Shown here one piece after another: positions 48,907-57,774 of a stretch of DNA of 64,000 bases. The notes below the pieces were generated by a model. That model worked only from the letters and a program-made list of their open reading frames with translations. It did no database searches and had not been told where the DNA came from. Both the position numbers and the translations under genes were made by a program. Within the stretch, counting starts at the first letter, position 1. Each line of letters starts with the position of its first letter. This stretch comes from a bacterium (GTDB lineage: Bacteria; Patescibacteriota; Minisyncoccia; Minisyncoccales; CG1-02-41-26), in NCBI GenBank assembly GCA_030616605.1, contig JAUWWY010000002.1, forward strand, positions 118,867-182,866. Direction: 5' to 3'.

Positions 48907-50595
48907 ATGCGTAAAGTTTTAATTATTTTTCTTTTAGTCATTTTTATTGGAGTAGGAATAGTTGGATTTTGGTATTGGCAAAAAAATATTTATTCCAAAG
49001 ACACTTTGAAACTTGAAATTTTAGGACCTGAATTAGTTCAAGCCGGCCAGGAAATTGAGTATTTAGTAAAAATGAAAAATAATGGCAAAGTTAGATTGGA
49101 AAATCCTGAGTTAATCTTTCAGGCTCCGGAGCAATCTATTTTAAAAGATTATTCTAATTTAAGAGTTACTCAAAAAATAGAAGACATTTATCCCGGTGAA
49201 CAAAGAACATATTCTTTTAAAGCTCAGCTTTTCGGAGAAAAAGACATTACTTTGGAAGCCAAAGCTTGGTTAAGTTATCAACCAAAGAATTTAAAAGCTC
49301 GCTTTGAATCAAAAACAACCTTGACGATAAGAATTGAATTTATTCCCTTAACTTTTGAGTTTGATTTACCTCTAAAGGTTGAAAAAGGGGAGGATATAAA
49401 ATTTTCTTTAAATTATTTTTCAAACATTGATTATCTTTTAGAGAATTTAAGAGTAAAAATTGAATATCCATCAGATTTTACTTTTGAAAGTTCTCTTCCC
49501 GAAGCTTTAGATGAAAATGAGTGGTCCTTGCCTCCTTTAGTTCAGGCTTCAGGAGGAAGAATAGAGATAAATGGACTAATTGAAGGAAAAGAGGGTCAGA
49601 AAAAGGTTTTCCGAGCCCAGCTGGGCATGCTTAAAGACGGAGATTTTTGGCTCTTAAAAGAAACTGCTCAATCAATAGAAATAATTGAGTCTTCTTTGTA
49701 CATTTCTAATTTAATTAATAATTCCCCAAATTATACAGCAAATCCCGGTGATTTTCTTCATTATGAGATTTACTTTAAAAATATTGGCAAAAGACCAGTT
49801 CAGAAGAAATATATTTTTGCTCGACTTGAGGGAGAATTTTTTGACTTAACAACTCTAAAATCAAACAAGGGAGAATTTGGCCAAGGGGATAACACTATTC
49901 TCTGGGACTGGAAAAATGTTCCCGACCTCAGATTTTTAGATGTTGGTCAAGAAGGAAAGGTTGAATTTTGGATAAGAGTCAAGGAAAGTGTTGATTATCA
50001 AGTTAAAAACGCAAAATTAAGAGCAGAAATAGCTTTAGGGGAAATTGAGAAAGTTTTTGAGACGAAAATAAATTCCCAATTAACTCTTTTCCAAAAAGCC
50101 TACTTTACTCAAGAATTTTTTGAAAATCTAGGTTCTTTGCCGCCCAAGATAGGTCAAGCCATTGATTATGTTATTGTCTGGCAAGTGGAAAATACTTGTA
50201 ATGAGTTAAAAAATGTTAAAGTAAAAAGTGCTTTATCAGAAAATGTTCAGCCGACTGGCAAAATTTTTCCCGAAGATGCTAAATTCACTTATGATTCAGA
50301 ATCAAAAACTGTAATGTGGAATATCGGAGAAGTCAACGCTTGGCAGAGTTTTGAAAATATTCCTCTGATTTTAGCCTTCCAGGTCAGATTGACTCCTGAT
50401 TTTTCTCAAAAAGGAAAAACTCCTCTTTTGATTAAGGAAAGTAATATTTTGGCTGAAGACAATTGGACTTCAGAAATTTTAGAAGAAAAAGCTTCAGCAG
50501 TGAATACCACTTTACCCGATGATGAAACCGTCAGTCCAGAACAAGGAATAGTGGAAGAACAAGGAATAGTGGAAGAACAAGGAATAGTGGAGTGA
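48907..50595 (+). CDS. Membrane-anchored exported protein with beta-sandwich (DUF11/CARDB-like) repeats, hypothetical
   Basis: N-terminal TM/signal segment and repeated beta-rich modules. The C-terminus ends in three EQGIVE copies (an 18-nt DNA repeat at 50539-50592). Confidence 0.35.
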   Translation: MRKVLIIFLLVIFIGVGIVGFWYWQKNIYSKDTLKLEILGPELVQAGQEIEYLVKMKNNGKVRLENPELIFQAPEQSILKDYSNLRVTQKIEDIYPGEQRTYSFKAQLFGEKDITLEAKAWLSYQPKNLKARFESKTTLTIRIEFIPLTFEFDLPLKVEKGEDIKFSLNYFSNIDYLLENLRVKIEYPSDFTFESSLPEALDENEWSLPPLVQASGGRIEINGLIEGKEGQKKVFRAQLGMLKDGDFWLLKETAQSIEIIESSLYISNLINNSPNYTANPGDFLHYEIYFKNIGKRPVQKKYIFARLEGEFFDLTTLKSNKGEFGQGDNTILWDWKNVPDLRFLDVGQEGKVEFWIRVKESVDYQVKNAKLRAEIALGEIEKVFETKINSQLTLFQKAYFTQEFFENLGSLPPKIGQAIDYVIVWQVENTCNELKNVKVKSALSENVQPTGKIFPEDAKFTYDSESKTVMWNIGEVNAWQSFENIPLILAFQVRLTPDFSQKGKTPLLIKESNILAEDNWTSEILEEKASAVNTTLPDDETVSPEQGIVEEQGIVEEQGIVE

Positions 50596-51982: not shown

Positions 51983-52012
51983 AACCCCCTTAAAGGGGGT
52001 CATTTTAGTTTT
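51983..52012 (+). terminator. Rho-independent terminator after glyQS
   Basis: CCCCCTT-AA-AGGGGG stem followed by TCATTTTAGTTTT. Confidence 0.55.
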
Positions 52013-52276
52013 CCACACCCTTTCCTTGACAAGCTATTTTCGTATGAGAGAATATAATAATCCCCAATATCCCAGCGTATATCCGATAGGGTATATCCGA
52101 TTAAGGATAATAAGGGATATTCTATAAAAAAAAGAAGGCCCGCGAAAAATCGGCTTCTCAACTGTGGAAGTATTTGAAGGGATTTTTGTTTACCCCAGCT
52201 TTTTAGTGCAAGGGTACGGACCTTCTAATCTTGATTATAATCTTTCAAAAGCATCTGTCAATCCCTCTGAGATAAT

Positions 52277-55200
52277 ATGAACCACCATAACAACAAAAAA
52301 TCAGAATATATTTCTTTGCAAGAAGCTACTAAATATTGCTCTTATTCGCGAGATTATTTGAAATTGCGTGCTCATCAAGGAAAATTGAAAGCAATTAAGA
52401 TTGCTAGAAACTGGCTGACCAAAAAAGAATGGATAGATGAATATTTGGAAAAGACCAACAACTATAAAAATCAGATAACTGAGCAGAGAAAGGAAAAAGA
52501 GAAAGAGAAAGAGTTAGAAAAAATAGAGGAGACAAGAAGGGAAGAAACAACTAAGCCAACGCCCGTCTTTGCTCCAAAACCCTCTTTTCAATTAGCGCCC
52601 AGAGTCCAGCTGATTGTTTTTATTGTGGCACTGGTTTTTGTTTTGACTTTTATTGGAACTATTTTTGCTTATCCATATTTTGAACCGGTTGTCAGCCCCA
52701 TTGTAAAAGAAATCACTTTTGATATTAAAAAAAATACAGCCTCTATTAAAGACCAAGTCAGCCAATATGTTGCTCAAAATGTAAAAGAAATTAAGAAACA
52801 AATACAAATACTAGTTCAGAAGATAAAACAGGTTCCTCAAAAAATTGTGAGCGTTTTCAAAGGAGAAGAGAAAGTTTTTTTAAGGGAAGATCTTGTTTTA
52901 AAACAAGAGATAGAAAAATTAATTGCTGAGAAATTTGTTACTAAAGAACAATTCAGAGAACTCCAGGAAAGATTTGAAAAACTAAAACAAGAAGGACTGT
53001 CTCAAAAAGAAATAATAAAAGAAGTAGAGGTTATTGTTAAAGAGATAGAAACAATTGATGATAAATCCCTGGTCCTGCTCAAATCCCAAATTTCCGAAAT
53101 CCAGGAATGGGAAAAAGATATTCTGACTCTCCAGATTCTAACTGCTAAACTCCAAACCCATCCTCCCTCTACCCAGGTTTCAACCGCTCCAGTATATATC
53201 GGCTCCCAGGGAATTCAAATAGGAGGAGCTGCGACCTTAGCTTCTTTAGGAGTTTCCGGTATGGCTGGAATTACTAACTTAGGAGTTGGTGGCTCTGCCA
53301 CCCTGGGTTCTGATTCTTTAGACAAACTGAGAGTTTATGCCACTGCTAATTTTATCTCCCCTGTTACTTTAACCAACACCTTCAGAGTTGGCGGGACAAC
53401 TGATTATTTAACTGTTAATTCAAACGGCAATCTTAGTACCACTGGAACTTTAACTGCTGCCACCTCTACTCTTTCCAGTCTTTTCACTACTGGAAATTTG
53501 GCAATAGGCGGTAATCTTGCTGTCTCAGGTACTCAGGTTGTCCAAGCCACCTCCACTTTAGCCACCACCACTATTACCAGATTAGGCATCGCCACAACAA
53601 CTCCATCTTATCCTTTAACCGTGGCTGGCGATATCTGGGGTTCAGGAAATATTGTCTTGGCAGGAACAATTGATACTGGCCAGGGAGCAACTGAAGTTTA
53701 TCTAATGAACCAAAACCTGAGAACATCTGATTCTCCAACTTTTAATAATCTTACTGTTACAAGCACAGCTACCACCACTAACTTAATAGTAACCAGTGAT
53801 TTGACTCTTACAGGACTAACCAATGGTTCAATTCTCTTCTCTACCTCATCAGGACTAATCTCCCAAGACAATGCTAATCTCTTCTGGGATGATACTAATA
53901 ATAGATTGGGCATTGGGACAAGCAGTCCAGCTACTATCTTTCAAGTAATTGGTACAAGCACTTTGCAAACTATTCTTCCTCAAACAACAAACACTTACAC
54001 CTTAGGTTCTCCAACCTACAAATGGGCAAACCTCTATGCTGCCACTACCACCATAGGGGATACAATCATCATTGGTACAAATAGCATTGCAGCTACCTCA
54101 ACTTTAACAATTTCTTCAGCTAATTCCTCAGATATTATCTTAAGCCCAGCACGTTATGTCGGCATCGGGACAACGAGTCCTGCCTCACTTCTCGATGTCT
54201 ATGGTTCTGCCAGATTTGGAACTTCATCTACTTCGACTTTATTTGTTGATTCAGGAAATGGAAGAGTCGGCATCGGGACGACGAATCCGCTAAAATTGTT
54301 GCATGTCGTTGGTGGAGAAGCACGTATGGACGGTGTCCTGACAGCGAACAGCACGGCAAATCTCTATGGTACAGTCAATATTGGGGATGGTGCGGGCGAT
54401 ACGGTCAGTATCTCAGCTGGTAATCTCTCCTTCAACAACAATACGACAGTGACGATGACGGATGGCGGCGGACGAACTCTCGACTTTGGACCAGGGGTTC
54501 TATCCATTAGTAAGGCTACCGGCAAAGTCGGCATCGGGACGGGGAGTCCTTCAGGAACATTAGATGTAAACAAAGGAGGAGTAATAGTAACAAATCTTCA
54601 AGCTCATACCGCTAATTTCTATGGAACTAATTATTCGGGAGGAACAATTGCTATATATGATAGTGCTTCTATTGCAGCTGGTGTTGGCGGAGGAATTAAT
54701 TTAGGAGGAATGTATGTTGGAGATGATGTTATAGAGTTTGCTCAGGTAAGAGCATCTAAGGAAACAGCTACAGTTGGTCAGTATGGGGGTTCGTTGATAT
54801 TTGCTACACGTGTTCATGGAGGGAATATGACTGATTATATGATAATAAATAGTTCAGGCAACGTCGGCATCGGGACGACAACAATAGGTTCGAGATTAAC
54901 CATTCAAAGCTCTGGAAATGCTTCTACAACTTCTGCTTTAAATATCCAAGATTCTGATGGAACAAGTATGTTATATGTAAGAGATGATGGAAACATCGGC
55001 ATCGGGACGGATAGTCCTGCTTATGAATTAGATGTAAATGGATTTATAAAATCAAAGGGTCAGATATATAATTATTGGCAAACTGATTCGTCAGGTTCGG
55101 CTGGTAATGATAAATGGTATCAGATAGCAGAGGCAAATATCATAAGTCAGTATGCTCAATATAGTGCTGTGTTTCATGTGTATCGCCATCGTTTATTTTC

Positions 55201-57712
55201 TTCTTCTGCGTATTCCCAGCAGTTTATGGTTGATTTCAGACAGGATGCCGCTATGACAAACGACCCAATTACTTTTATATGGCCTATACAAGCATCAGGT
55301 GCTTCAGCAATACAAGTTAAGGCTATATTAACCACAAACACTGCAGACTTGAAAACATTAAAGGTTTATGTATATCAAACAGGTACATATTCTATTATTA
55401 GGATAGCACAAGTTCAGGGTAATTTTGACCCCTTTGAATCAGCGTCAGGTATAGAAACAGGTTCTTTGCCTGCAGGGACACAGTATGATTTAGACCACGA
55501 TGCTTTTTATTTGAAAAATGACGGCAACGTCGGCATCGGGACGGCGAGCCCTACACATAACTTAGAAATTGAAGGGACTACGGCACAGATTCAGACGATA
55601 ATGACAGGTACCACAAGTTATAGTGGTCTGGTGGCTGATTCGGATACGGCAACGCATTATCTTGTGGTTGCTACCTACGGCAGTGAGGATACAGGAACAA
55701 TTTTTGGCATAACTCGGGCTGATGTTTCTATGTTATTTGCAATAAATCAGCCATTATTTATTGGAACATTCAGTGCTGAGGATTTGATTATTGGAACTAA
55801 TGATACAGAACGTATGCGTATTTTATCAGATGGCAAAGTCGGCATTGGGACGAGTAGTCCAAATGAAAAACTTTCTGTTTCTGGTAATTTAAGTATAGGA
55901 AATGCGGCTGCTGGGACAGATGCGACCAGGACATTAGTACTAGGGCTTGGGACAATTCCTTCTTCTTCTCCTGCTGATCTAGTCCAGCTTTATGCTGAAA
56001 ATGTGGATAGAGACTTGTGTACAGGAGGAACGGCTAGCGCAAATAGTGAGTATGATGCTGGTAGTAGTGCAGATAAGGTATTCGACGATATTATTACCAC
56101 CTCCTGGATGACCGAGCAGGGAGTTGTAACTGGCTGGGTAAAATATGATTTTGGTAGCGGGAACAATAAGATAATAGACAAATACCGAGTTTATATGGGT
56201 GGTAGCTCTTCGAGGTCTCCTAAAGACTGGACTTTTCAGGGTTCAAATAATGATAGTGATTGGGACACATTAGACACCCAGACTAGTCAGACCTGGAGTG
56301 GTGCCGAATGGAAAGATTACACCTTTAGCAATAGCACTCCTTATCGTTATTATATGATTAATATTACTGCTAATAATGGGGATGCCAACTTTTTGATGAT
56401 GAATGAGATGGAGATGATATTCATGAATCTAGCCGGATTAAAAGTAAGAGATGAGGCAGGGATTATAACGCTACTTTCACCCCACGATGTTGGGACAGGA
56501 GAGTGGATATTTTATTCAGAGAATGCCAATACAGGCAAAGTCCTTAGGGTAGAAATGGAGAGATTAACAAAGAGACTAAATAGAATATTAGGAGGAGGAT
56601 TTGTGACAGAAAACAACAAAACAGAATTGGCAGATCATGCTTTCAATATTGTCGATTCATCAGGGAATAGCTTGTTATTTGTCGGAGATAACGGCAATGT
56701 CGGCATCGGGACAACAAGTTCTTCTAACATTTTAACGGTCAAGAAGGACTCAACTACTGATCCTATTGCTGATGCTTGGACTCAATATTCAACTCCAGAT
56801 AGTAAAATAGTTTTGGGTTCTGCTAATGACCAGGCAGAAGAATATCTGGAGAAATTCAAAGAGTTAATGGTCTATAAATGGAAAAGAAATGAAAATGAAC
56901 AGGAACGTCTGGGTGTTTTGGCTGTCACCTCTACTCCTTCGGAAATCTTAGCTTATGATGCTGGAGGTAATATCCAGGGAATAGACCTTGGCGGCTACAT
57001 TGGCTTTCTCCATGAGGCAATGAAAGCCCAGCAAACCCAAATAGAAGAACTAAGAAAAGAGGTTTTTGCTACAACAACCCTTTCAGTAGAAGAGAACACT
57101 GAAGGTCAAATTGTTAACCTTTCTCTGGAAGAGCTTCGTCGGTCGCTTGCTTTACTCGGCCTTTTAGTGACAGAGACCGGGTCTCTGGAAGTTCAGGAAT
57201 TAAAAGCTCAAGAATTAGAGGTTGGTTCCCAATCAAAGCCAGCTGGTATTACTATTTATGACGAAGAGACCAGTCAGCCCTTTTGTATTAAAGTTAAGGG
57301 CGCTGAGATGATAAATGTGCCTGGTAAATGTGATACTGTACAAACTAATAATAATATCACCGACCCGACCAGTGACACTATTCCAACGCCCGAACCCGAG
57401 CCTGAACCAACGCCAGAGCCTGAACCACAGCCTGAGCCAGAGCCAGAATCAACCATCACCGTCCCGACCGGTGACACTGTTCCAACTCCTGAACCTGAAC
57501 TAGAACCAGAACCAGAACCAGAGCCAACTCCTGAACCTGAACCTGAACCAACTCCAGAGCCCGAGCCAGAACCAACTCCAGAACCTGAACCAACTCCTGA
57601 ACCCGAACCCGAGCCACAGCCCGAACCAACTCCACAGCCCGAACCACAGCCCGAACCAACTCCCGAACCAACTCCCGAACCCGAACCAGCACCGGCGCCA
57701 GTTGAAGAATAA
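52277..57712 (+). CDS. Giant (1811 aa) membrane-anchored surface protein with an N-terminal HTH-like domain, tail-fibre-like repeats, a discoidin-like domain and a PEPT-rich C-terminal tail
   Basis: N-terminus [41 protein letters not shown] resembles an HTH_17/excisionase fold. TM helix [23 protein letters not shown]. Nine (N/K/R)VGIGT(T/S)SP...L.V.G repeats. [10 protein letters not shown]...GWVKYDFG...YRVYMG...[12 protein letters not shown] is F5/8-type-C-like. The last ~110 aa are (PEPEPT)n. Confidence 0.7.
57360..57705 (+). repeat. Hexa/nonanucleotide-periodic coding repeat (CCNGAACCNGAACCNACT) encoding (PEPEPT)n
   Basis: Direct reading of the sequence. The antisense strand gives the spurious G/S-rich ORF 57274-57747. 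Confidence 0.8.
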
Positions 57713-57745
57713 GCCCCAGCTGTTAGAAATGTAATAAAAAAAGAC

Positions 57746-57774
57746 AAGGGACGTTTTTGTCCCTCTTTTGTTTT
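57746..57774 (+). terminator. Rho-independent terminator after the giant gene
   Basis: AAGGGAC-GTTTTT-GTCCCT followed by CTTTTGTTTT. Confidence 0.6.

Follow-up and report, generated by a model that had tools for sequence, protein, structure and literature searches.

The sequence analyzed in this study is a 64,000-nucleotide stretch (the window) of contig JAUWWY010000002.1, positions 118,867 to 182,866, from a bacterium of the Patescibacteriota (GenBank assembly GCA_030616605.1). An open reading frame (ORF) in its distal part runs without interruption from ATG to stop and encodes a protein of 1811 amino acid residues, as a preliminary description of the sequence had reported. From its N-terminus to its C-terminus, the protein consists of an HTH_17-type helix-turn-helix (HTH) domain, a linker, a transmembrane (TM) helix, a stalk with heptad periodicity, a beta-rich shaft of ~1,200 residues, a CBM32 domain, an S74 domain, a module with two Cys residues and a tail rich in Pro, Glu and Thr (Table 1). 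The gene, referred to here as the fiber gene, probably encodes a cell-surface fiber adhesin that resembles phage tail fibers and the MATs of Bdellovibrio bacteriovorus and is anchored in the membrane of its own cell via a lineage-specific cassette. The probability of this reading is estimated to be roughly 0.7.

The shaft is characterized by nine copies of the motif GxVGIGTxxPxxxLxV, which are found at residues 545, 629, 665, 752, 864, 908, 1086, 1189, and 1476. For GIGT, 9 copies compare with an expectation of 0.12 and a maximum of 3 in shuffled sequences. The nine copies had previously been described as repeats like those of phage tail fibers. Their number and their likeness to tail fibers were borne out. 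The spacing between them is irregular, ranging from 36 to 287 residues, and GIGT is therefore a recurring motif rather than a tandem repeat. A profile built from the nine motifs matched the Bdellovibrio MAT structures 8ond (Bd2133; E = 5.5e-17), 8ojn (3.2e-10), 8ol4 (6.2e-9), and 8oml (3e-8). In addition, tail and tail-fiber families of PHROGs matched the shaft as well as the discoidin region. The crystal structures of MATs show a trimeric beta-helix, whose capping loops are formed by this motif (PMC10769870). By profile comparison, the repeats belong to the tail-fiber/MAT beta-helix family.

A discoidin-like module had been noted near residues 1230–1370. The F5_F8_type_C model of Pfam placed it at residues 1253–1377, with 28.9 bits, just over the gathering score of 28.2. 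PF00754 and/or PF22633 were present in all homologs (33/33). The AlphaFold2 (AF2) model of the domain had a pLDDT of 86.6 overall and above 95 in the core. Searching with this model by foldseek gave 251 PDB matches at E ≤ 1e-3, at the top of which were CBM32 structures (1e-10). The model thus supports a CBM32 fold and, with it, a putative role in carbohydrate binding. Together with the homology to MAT fibers, this fold supports the earlier suggestion that the protein is an adhesin or a fiber with which the cell attaches to a host.

The S74 domain and the two-Cys module were missed in the preliminary description. In alignments, the S74 region was collinear with the PF13884-positive domain of the homolog P0029 and partly with that of P0044, and it scored 21.6 bits against a profile built from homologs. 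Only two columns were invariant in an alignment of 17 sequences, S1505 and K1510, whose spacing is that of the catalytic Ser and Lys, with Lys at position +5. Position +1 of S1505 is occupied by Thr, where Asp is the usual residue. Moreover, the S74 profile matched the chaperone domains of phages S16, T5, and GA-1 and of MyRF (structures 6f45, 8jov, 7dc3, 8hqz, and 3gud).

The two-Cys module that follows is ~85 residues long, has two conserved Cys residues and possesses the motif GITIYDxxTxxPFCIxVxG...GxC, the form of which in the family is GITIYDxxTGxPYCIxIxNG...GxC. At least 20 family members end in this module, whether or not they possess an S74 domain (P0012, P0006, and P0030 are among them), and no model of Pfam or NCBIfam covers it. 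Two homologs, P0194 (235 residues) and P0176 (185 residues), consist only of the HTH, the TM helix and this module. The remaining 117 residues form the Pro/Glu/Thr spacer that had been recognized before. It contains 42% Pro, 28% Glu and 15% Thr, ends in PAPAPVEE and is encoded by imperfect DNA repeats of 6–99 nt. A 157-residue ORF on the opposite strand (57274–57747) overlaps this tail; it is probably an artifact of the GAACCA-type repeats and not a gene.

Residues 11–59 matched Pfam HTH_17 (PF12728) end to end (positions 1–49 of 51 of the profile). The scores were 17.1 bits with the whole protein and 24.4 bits with a 63-residue fragment, and the gathering score is 27. The NCBIfam model TIGR01764, named excise, was matched over its full length with 23.5 bits (cut-off, 28.8). 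Of the 27 N-termini of homologs, 23 also matched HTH_17 at E < 0.01, the lowest E-value being 1.8e-8. The AF2 model of the domain had a pLDDT of 84 and a beta-alpha-alpha-beta-beta-alpha topology. The top fold matches in the PDB, found with foldseek, were RdfS excisionase, Pukovnik Xis, BldC, TraN, GlnR, and RacA, with TM-scores of 0.6–0.7 and probabilities of about 1; the protein binders CbpM and DafA were also among the fold relatives. Homology to this HTH class is secured by the matches of the homologous N-termini and of the predicted fold, and residues 11–59 are modeled as a winged HTH of the Xis/MerR type, in agreement with the excisionase/MerR-type HTH proposed before. A sequence-profile search of the PDB with the HTH alignment returned nothing meaningful, only ankyrin noise. 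Scanning the six-frame translation of the window with the HTH profile gave no match besides the fiber gene. The net charge of residues 1–62 is +6, and in the recognition helix and wing, the basic residues R31, R33, K36, and K41 show little or no variation across the homologs.

The HTH is followed by a Glu/Lys-rich linker and a single TM helix, an arrangement that the preliminary description had given correctly. The length of the linker differs among family members. Exactly one hydrophobic segment was found in the protein, and all sequence after it is acidic. Given the basic residues 1–62 and the acidic remainder, we therefore infer an N-in/C-out topology. Inspection of the sequence after the helix revealed no small-x-small site of the signal-peptidase type. 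At residues 152–281, the power at period 3.5 was above the 99th percentile of shuffled sequences. The coiled coil mentioned in the preliminary description was thus found, but next to the membrane and not in the C-terminal part, where heptad periodicity was not significant.

Table 1. Features of the fiber gene, its product and its upstream region. Positions are those of the window.
Feature	Residues	Position	Strand	Remark
Box A, TTTTCCACA		52009..52017	+	8 nt upstream of -35
Promoter-like site TTGACA, 16 nt spacer, GAGAAT (with TG)		52026..52053	+	
Two tandem 14-nt copies AG(C/G)GTATATCCGAT with box B		52074..52101	+	just downstream of -10
Box B copies, TATCCGATA and TATCCGATT		52080-52088 and 52094-52102	+	
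Complete ORF		52277..57712	+	1811 aa plus stop codon
Excisionase/MerR-type winged HTH (HTH_17-like)	11-59	52307..52453	+	predicted cytoplasmic
Glu/Lys/Thr/Pro-rich linker	60-107	52454..52597	+	between HTH and membrane
Single TM helix	108-132	52598..52672	+	signal anchor, predicted N-in from charge
K/E/Q/I-rich stalk	152-281	52730..53119	+	heptad periodicity (coiled coil)
Fiber shaft, Thr/Gly/Ser-rich	301-1504	53177..56788	+	nine capping-loop motifs
F5/8 type C (discoidin)/CBM32 domain	1253-1377	56033..56407	+	near distal end of shaft
Divergent Peptidase_S74 intramolecular chaperone/autoprotease	~1500-1592	56774..57052	+	
Candidate catalytic dyad	S1505 and K1510	56789-56791 and 56804-56806	+	
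Two-Cys C-terminal module	~1602-1686	57080..57334	+	C1670, C1685
Pro/Glu/Thr low-complexity tail	1695-1811	57359..57709	+	net charge -36

The window is part of a cellular chromosome of low GC content (about 0.33). Upstream of the fiber gene are genes for ArgRS, IleRS, RecO, and a class II aminoacyl-tRNA synthetase (aaRS), and downstream of it are genes for an M16 peptidase and an AI-2E transporter. Elsewhere, the window encodes GyrA, FtsH, RecG, RtcB, a PolX, one tmRNA and four tRNAs. A terminator-like hairpin (51984–52000) follows the gene upstream of the fiber gene. With this terminator and a promoter of its own, the fiber gene is a separate transcription unit. Two genes upstream of it, a 562-residue protein with DUF11, DUF7619, and DUF7507 repeats is encoded (48907–50595, plus strand), which is probably another surface protein. 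Its position is kept in two metagenome-assembled genomes (MAGs) of Patescibacteria type, L001 and L002.

Homologs of the protein and of its flanks came almost exclusively from MAGs of Patescibacteria, also known as CPR, including Parcubacteria, Nealsonbacteria, Paceibacteria, Komeilibacteria, and Torokbacteria. The gene order IleRS-RecO-DUF11-aaRS is common to the window, L001 and L002. At the syntenic position, L002 encodes a related HTH-TM protein of at least 622 residues, within which the contig ends. The protein at this position of L001 (6001–7089) is also an HTH-TM protein. It has 363 residues and is similar to the query only over residues 1–70. Thus, its ectodomain has been swapped behind a constant unit of promoter, leader and HTH.

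The matches to tail and tail-fiber PHROGs and the S74 domain could also point to a prophage or a phage-derived tail-fiber gene rather than a gene for a cellular surface protein, and the GC content of the fiber gene, 0.41 vs. about 0.33 in its neighbors, might be taken in the same way. However, the GC content at third codon positions is 0.32 compared with 0.24–0.29. Codon positions 1 and 2 account for most of the excess, which therefore reflects amino acid composition. Moreover, no phage genes were found in the window or flanking the fiber gene; the neighboring ORFs scanned were housekeeping genes, such as those for aaRSs, RecO and the M16 peptidase, and included no integrases. The locus is also syntenic in related genomes, and the TM anchor and HTH cassette are common to hundreds of chromosomal genes of Patescibacteria. 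On gene context and synteny, a prophage origin was rejected as very improbable.

The same HTH followed by a TM helix was found at the start of 27 of 45 full-length homologs. With a degenerate DNA pattern, 351 HTH-TM loci were identified in species-representative genomes, nearly all of which are labeled Patescibacteria. The locus-level counts of TM helices and gene order given here refer to the 80 of these 351 loci that were fetched. In these loci, 87 of 89 family ORFs had one TM helix after the HTH, within about 75–350 residues. When 1.84 billion proteins were searched with the HTH profile, 1,866 cluster representatives matched at E ≤ 1e-10. The polypeptide length in the clusters with the cassette ranged from 83 to 6,890 residues, and the mean column identity of the HTH was 62% across proteins whose ectodomains are unrelated. 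Minimal HTH-TM proteins of 107–154 residues were also found in a homolog search with the N-terminal 135 residues. In many proteins and loci, two or three HTH copies stand in tandem before the TM helix (P0001, P0007, P0065, P0066, L009–L012, L015, L019, L025, and L032), similar to TraN, a DNA binder with an internal duplication of its HTH. A few HTH-TM loci carry labels other than Patescibacteria, such as Gammaproteobacteria (L015, L019, and L044) and Omnitrophota (L041). These labels could result from mislabeling or bin contamination or reflect real occurrence outside the phylum. Judged by these comparisons, the HTH-TM N-terminus is a Patescibacteria-wide cassette fused to swappable ectodomains. 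The pairing of a DNA-binding fold with a surface fiber, which had been called unusual, is so among characterized proteins but not in Patescibacteria, where it is a common and highly conserved cassette.

FtsW/RodA is directly followed by HTH-TM genes in 52 of the 80 loci. There are one to four such genes per locus, and they differ widely in size. The genes before them are, in order, those for a prepilin peptidase (A24), which is often present, three or four pilin-like proteins (N_methyl), LigA, and FtsW/RodA. The HTH-TM proteins encoded at these loci (including L004, L009–L014, L021, L024, L033, L036, L040, L046, and L048 as well as L055, L065–L069, L073, L075, and L077) range from 121 to more than 2,060 residues. 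The FtsW/RodA-LigA-pilin locus looks like a hot spot of surface-protein diversification. This neighborhood of FtsW, LigA, and pilin genes is absent from the 64-kb window. No curated model of Pfam or NCBIfam covers the HTH-TM cassette. Searches of the accessible literature for the cassette, for giant surface proteins of Patescibacteria or for a DnaA box of Patescibacteria gave no description of the cassette, nor was one found of the promoter element described below, an absence that does not prove novelty.

The cassette might serve export and topology only, as an extended signal anchor that fixes the N-in orientation and paces the membrane insertion of very large proteins and has no role at DNA. 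It is always located at the very N-terminus, with one TM helix after it, and is strongly basic (+6), in contrast to the acidic ectodomain. At its end, the TM helix has conserved motifs (FGYPY or FGKESF). The cassette would then be analogous to extended signal peptides, such as ESPR, YSIRK, and KxYKxGKxW. However, known extended signal peptides are short and unstructured, whereas the cassette contains a folded domain of 50 residues from a DNA-binding superfamily, sometimes in 2–3 copies. The cassette is also found on proteins of 107–154 residues that need no special export, and it lacks a site like that of signal peptidase after the TM helix. A function restricted to export therefore appears improbable.

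The region upstream of the fiber gene contains two kinds of boxes around a promoter-like site (Table 1), which is kept in the syntenic L001 and L002 as well as in the family consensus. Box A, TTTTCCACA, differs by one mismatch from the family consensus GTTATCCACAG, whose core TTATCCACA equals the DnaA-box consensus. Across the family (loci L002–L076), in many species and varied genomic settings, the element consists of a DnaA-box-like GT(T/A)TCCACAG about 8 nt before CTTGACA plus TATCCGATA boxes. The latter often directly precede box A in a head-to-tail arrangement, at a distance of about 10 nt, or else they follow the -10. The k-mer TTATCCAC was found in 36 of 101 HTH-TM upstream regions vs. 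3 of 475 controls, and ATCCGATA in 39 of 101 vs. 4 of 475. Anchored on the first of these k-mers, the consensus reads AGTTATCCACAGtTT-N4-cTTGACA-(about 18)-AAAATAAa.tAAT. The pattern T[TA]TCCACA occurred in 41 of 101 HTH-TM upstream regions vs. 6 of 478 controls (Fisher p = 1.4e-28). Furthermore, the composite T[TA]TCCACA-N5-12-TTGAC was found 53 times in 771 kb, both strands included. For 48 of these 53 sites, an HTH-TM ORF of the same orientation follows less than 420 nt downstream. In the 64-kb window, the composite is present exactly once, at 52009–52031 ahead of the fiber gene. Where HTH-TM paralogs are in tandem, each tends to have its own copy of the promoter element.

The tandem 14-nt duplication with the two copies of box B was considered as a pair of operators and rejected. 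It is specific to the window, as one copy or none is present in L001 and L002. Its TATCCGAT core, not the duplication, is family-wide (32/101 HTH-TM upstream regions vs. 2/475 controls).

Between the promoter-like site and the start codon is a 5' leader of roughly 220 nt (52055–52276; L001, 5775–6000; L002, 3915–4190), which is 67% identical in the three genomes and is kept although the coding region of L001 diverges after residue 70. The leader has a possible closing helix, GAAGG.CCCG / CGG.CCTTC, with some double changes according to RNAalifold, to which only 3 sequences were available. The k-mer AAAAAAGAAG is enriched in the leaders of the family (13/101 vs. 1/475). With 3 sequences, a z-score of only -1.65 from single-sequence folding and no Rfam family that matches the leader, an RNA element is not claimed.

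The near-invariance of the HTH across unrelated ectodomains and the common promoter element suggest that the HTH most likely binds a single common ligand. Since the core of the element, TTATCCACA, corresponds to the DnaA-box consensus, the binder of the element could be DnaA or the HTH of the family itself. As to the ligand of the HTH, the promoter DNA of the family is the leading candidate, which would result in auto- or cross-regulation at the membrane, although this assignment is tentative, and the HTH could instead bind DNA in general or a protein partner. Binding of the family promoter by the HTH and reading of the element by DnaA are not mutually exclusive.

If the HTH does bind the promoter, signaling might be the main role of the protein and of the HTH-TM family as a whole, with the protein as a membrane-tethered one-component regulator. 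Its ectodomain would sense contact or load, and the HTHs, clustered in the trimer, would bind the TATCC-type boxes and alter the expression of the family, in the manner of bitopic transcription factors of the ToxR/CadC type. The architecture, with a DNA-binding fold, a single TM helix and an extracytoplasmic domain, is consistent with such a role. A conserved motif ahead of genes for domains of the DNA-binding type is also a classic signature of autoregulation. In addition, the boxes are often arranged head-to-tail about 10 nt apart (TATCCGATAG-TTATCCACAG), some members have two or three tandem HTHs like TraN, which is among the fold matches, and R31, R33, K36, and K41 are kept in the recognition helix and wing. 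However, the ectodomains are mutually unrelated and vary in length between about 30 and more than 6,000 residues, which is unlike a family of sensors. All paralogs would recognize one and the same site, so that there would be no specificity, and box A equals a DnaA box. Moreover, DNA binding by the HTH is putative, and its fold relatives CbpM and DafA bind proteins instead. We consider a sensory function of this kind possible, at clearly less than even odds.

Alternatively, the promoter element could be a DnaA box that ties expression of the family to replication or the cell cycle, and the HTH could be a handle that binds a protein or, in a general way, the nucleoid, rather than a regulator of specific genes. 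There are precedents for such handles, as the HTH of RodZ binds MreB and RacA tethers DNA. In the family consensus GTTATCCACAG, 9/9 positions of the DnaA-box consensus are present, and their distance from the -35 is fixed. In 52 of the 80 loci the HTH-TM genes directly follow the division and replication genes FtsW/RodA and LigA, and the fold neighbors of the HTH include the protein binders CbpM and DafA as well as the chromosome anchor RacA. However, the box of the window itself is mismatched (TTTTCCACA), the TATCCGATA boxes that go with the element do not conform to the canonical DnaA box, and hardly any genes other than HTH-TM genes have the element in the 771 kb sampled. We consider control by DnaA possible, with odds clearly below even.

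A broader proposal is that the HTH-TM cassette defines a Patescibacteria-wide class of proteins that link the surface to DNA. Hundreds of hypervariable surface proteins, among them fibers, adhesins and small ectodomains, would each possess the same excisionase-type domain in the cytoplasm, and this domain would recognize the TATCC/TTATCCACA-type boxes in the promoter that the family has in common. When surface proteins assemble, cluster or are lost, there would then be direct feedback on the expression of the whole repertoire. Alternatively, the HTH would hold the genes of the family at the membrane for co-translational insertion of their products. The constant 5' unit of promoter, leader, HTH and TM helix would also provide a handle for the swapping of ectodomains. 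This proposal is speculative and is considered less likely than not.

Several observations weigh against the reading of the gene as a fiber adhesin with a DNA-binding anchor. The query is under the Pfam threshold for Peptidase_S74 (PF13884), for which it gave no match even at E ≤ 1, and it is also under the curated thresholds for HTH_17 and TIGR01764. Different from phage proteins and MATs, its S74 domain is not terminal and is followed by about 220 residues, and the module after it is kept even in minimal family members. Thus, shedding may not occur, or the fragment may have a role of its own. Finally, only 41–48 of 101 upstream regions of HTH-TM genes contain box A, and since this box equals the DnaA-box consensus, its reader may be DnaA rather than the HTH.

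MATs are trimeric, displayed at the surface and bind glycans, and their S74 domain cleaves itself (Caulton et al., 2024, PMC10769870). Similar to the MATs Bd2133, Bd3182, and Bd2439 of B. bacteriovorus, the fiber has a long beta-helix with the same capping-loop motif, VG-x-G/N-T-x-x-P-x-x-x-L, an S74-type domain with a Ser...Lys motif and swappable adhesive domains, which in MATs are at the tip. Also alike, MATs are used by a bacterium that lives on other cells and have many paralogs per genome. The N-terminus of MATs, however, consists of a signal peptide and an invariant beta-rich domain of ~130 residues (PMC10769870). With a Sec signal peptide and this N-domain, MATs are placed on the outer surface of a diderm, whereas in the fiber a cytoplasmic HTH is followed by a TM helix and a coiled-coil stalk. 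Compared with PDB chains, which are C-terminal fragments of MATs, the fiber starts with an HTH_17-like domain in place of the MAT N-domain. Because the defining N-terminal domain is replaced, the fiber was not filed as a member of the MATs, and its ectodomain is placed in the tail-fiber/MAT superfamily by the profiles of its shaft and S74 domain. Further differences from MATs are the about 220 residues after S74, a CBM32 domain that is embedded in the shaft and the Patescibacteria as host lineage. The main text of the paper that describes MATs makes no mention of Patescibacteria (PMC10769870).

Phage fibers and tailspikes, such as K1F endosialidase, T5 pb1, and GA-1 gp12, have a chaperone domain of the same family by profile (PF13884), also with Ser and Lys five residues apart, and the tail-fiber PHROGs match the shaft and the discoidin region. 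Different from them, the fiber is chromosomal, without a virion context, and has an N-terminal membrane anchor and an S74 domain that is not C-terminal.

ToxR, TcpP, CadC, and RodZ also possess an N-terminal cytoplasmic domain of HTH type, one TM helix and an extracytoplasmic C-terminal part, and ToxR and CadC bind promoters while they are membrane-bound. The HTH of the fiber, however, is excisionase/MerR-like (HTH_17) and neither OmpR-type as in ToxR and CadC nor Xre-type as in RodZ. Moreover, different from these proteins, its ectodomain is a fiber of about 1,680 residues with no sensor domain, and the ectodomains of the family are hypervariable. Identity with RodZ was rejected, since neither HTH_25 nor RodZ_C was matched in Pfam at E ≤ 1; the sole HTH matches were HTH_17 of Pfam and excise of NCBIfam. 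A factor of the ToxR/CadC type was rejected by HTH class (HTH_17/excise, with the Xis/MerR fold), although the architecture is analogous.

MyRF is the one characterized protein known to unite a DNA-binding domain, a trimerizing autoprotease of S74 type and a TM helix, and its structure 7dc3 was matched by the S74 profile with E = 4.6e-11. In MyRF, the DNA-binding domain and S74 are on the same side of the membrane, and cleavage frees a DNA-binding trimer. In the fiber, the TM helix separates the HTH from S74, and therefore cleavage by S74 cannot free the HTH. Xis, BldC, and TraN share the fold and the sequence family of the fiber HTH and bind head-to-tail DNA repeats. These proteins are small and soluble, whereas the HTH of the fiber is tethered to the membrane and is a putative DNA binder. 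Different from Xis, the fiber gene has no integrase or mobile element nearby among the neighboring ORFs that were scanned.

Read as a fiber adhesin, the protein would be inserted into the membrane with its N-terminus in the cytoplasm. Three chains would trimerize through the heptad stalk and the S74 chaperone domain into a long fiber. By analogy with MATs, this fiber should be tens of nm long; the AlphaFold model of the MAT Bd3182, which has at least 922 residues, is about 55 nm (PMC10769870). The S74 domain probably cleaves itself at S1505, which would shed the last 307 residues and place the three CBM32 domains of the mature fiber about 130–250 residues from the new tip. In this position, their targets could be glycans of a host cell, a partner cell or some other surface. 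The module after S74 and the Pro/Glu/Thr tail would be shed with the chaperone or, if the chain is uncleaved, be kept. The HTH would stay in the cytoplasm on its flexible tether.

Patescibacteria account for a large share of bacterial diversity, and most of them appear to be attached to other cells. To our knowledge, how they recognize and hold their hosts is largely unknown. The fiber gene is a concrete candidate for host recognition and attachment, as it encodes a putative glycan-binding fiber in the membrane of the symbiont itself. This type of adhesin is known; what is new is an adhesin of the MAT/tail-fiber type with a lineage-wide HTH-TM anchor and a dedicated promoter element. If the HTH reads this element, gene expression would be wired to the cell surface in a new and very direct way. 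With DnaA as the reader, the expression of surface proteins would be tied to the replication cycle in these minimal cells. If the cassette does define a class of proteins that link the surface to DNA, it would be a one-protein transmembrane circuit in organisms with few conventional signaling systems.

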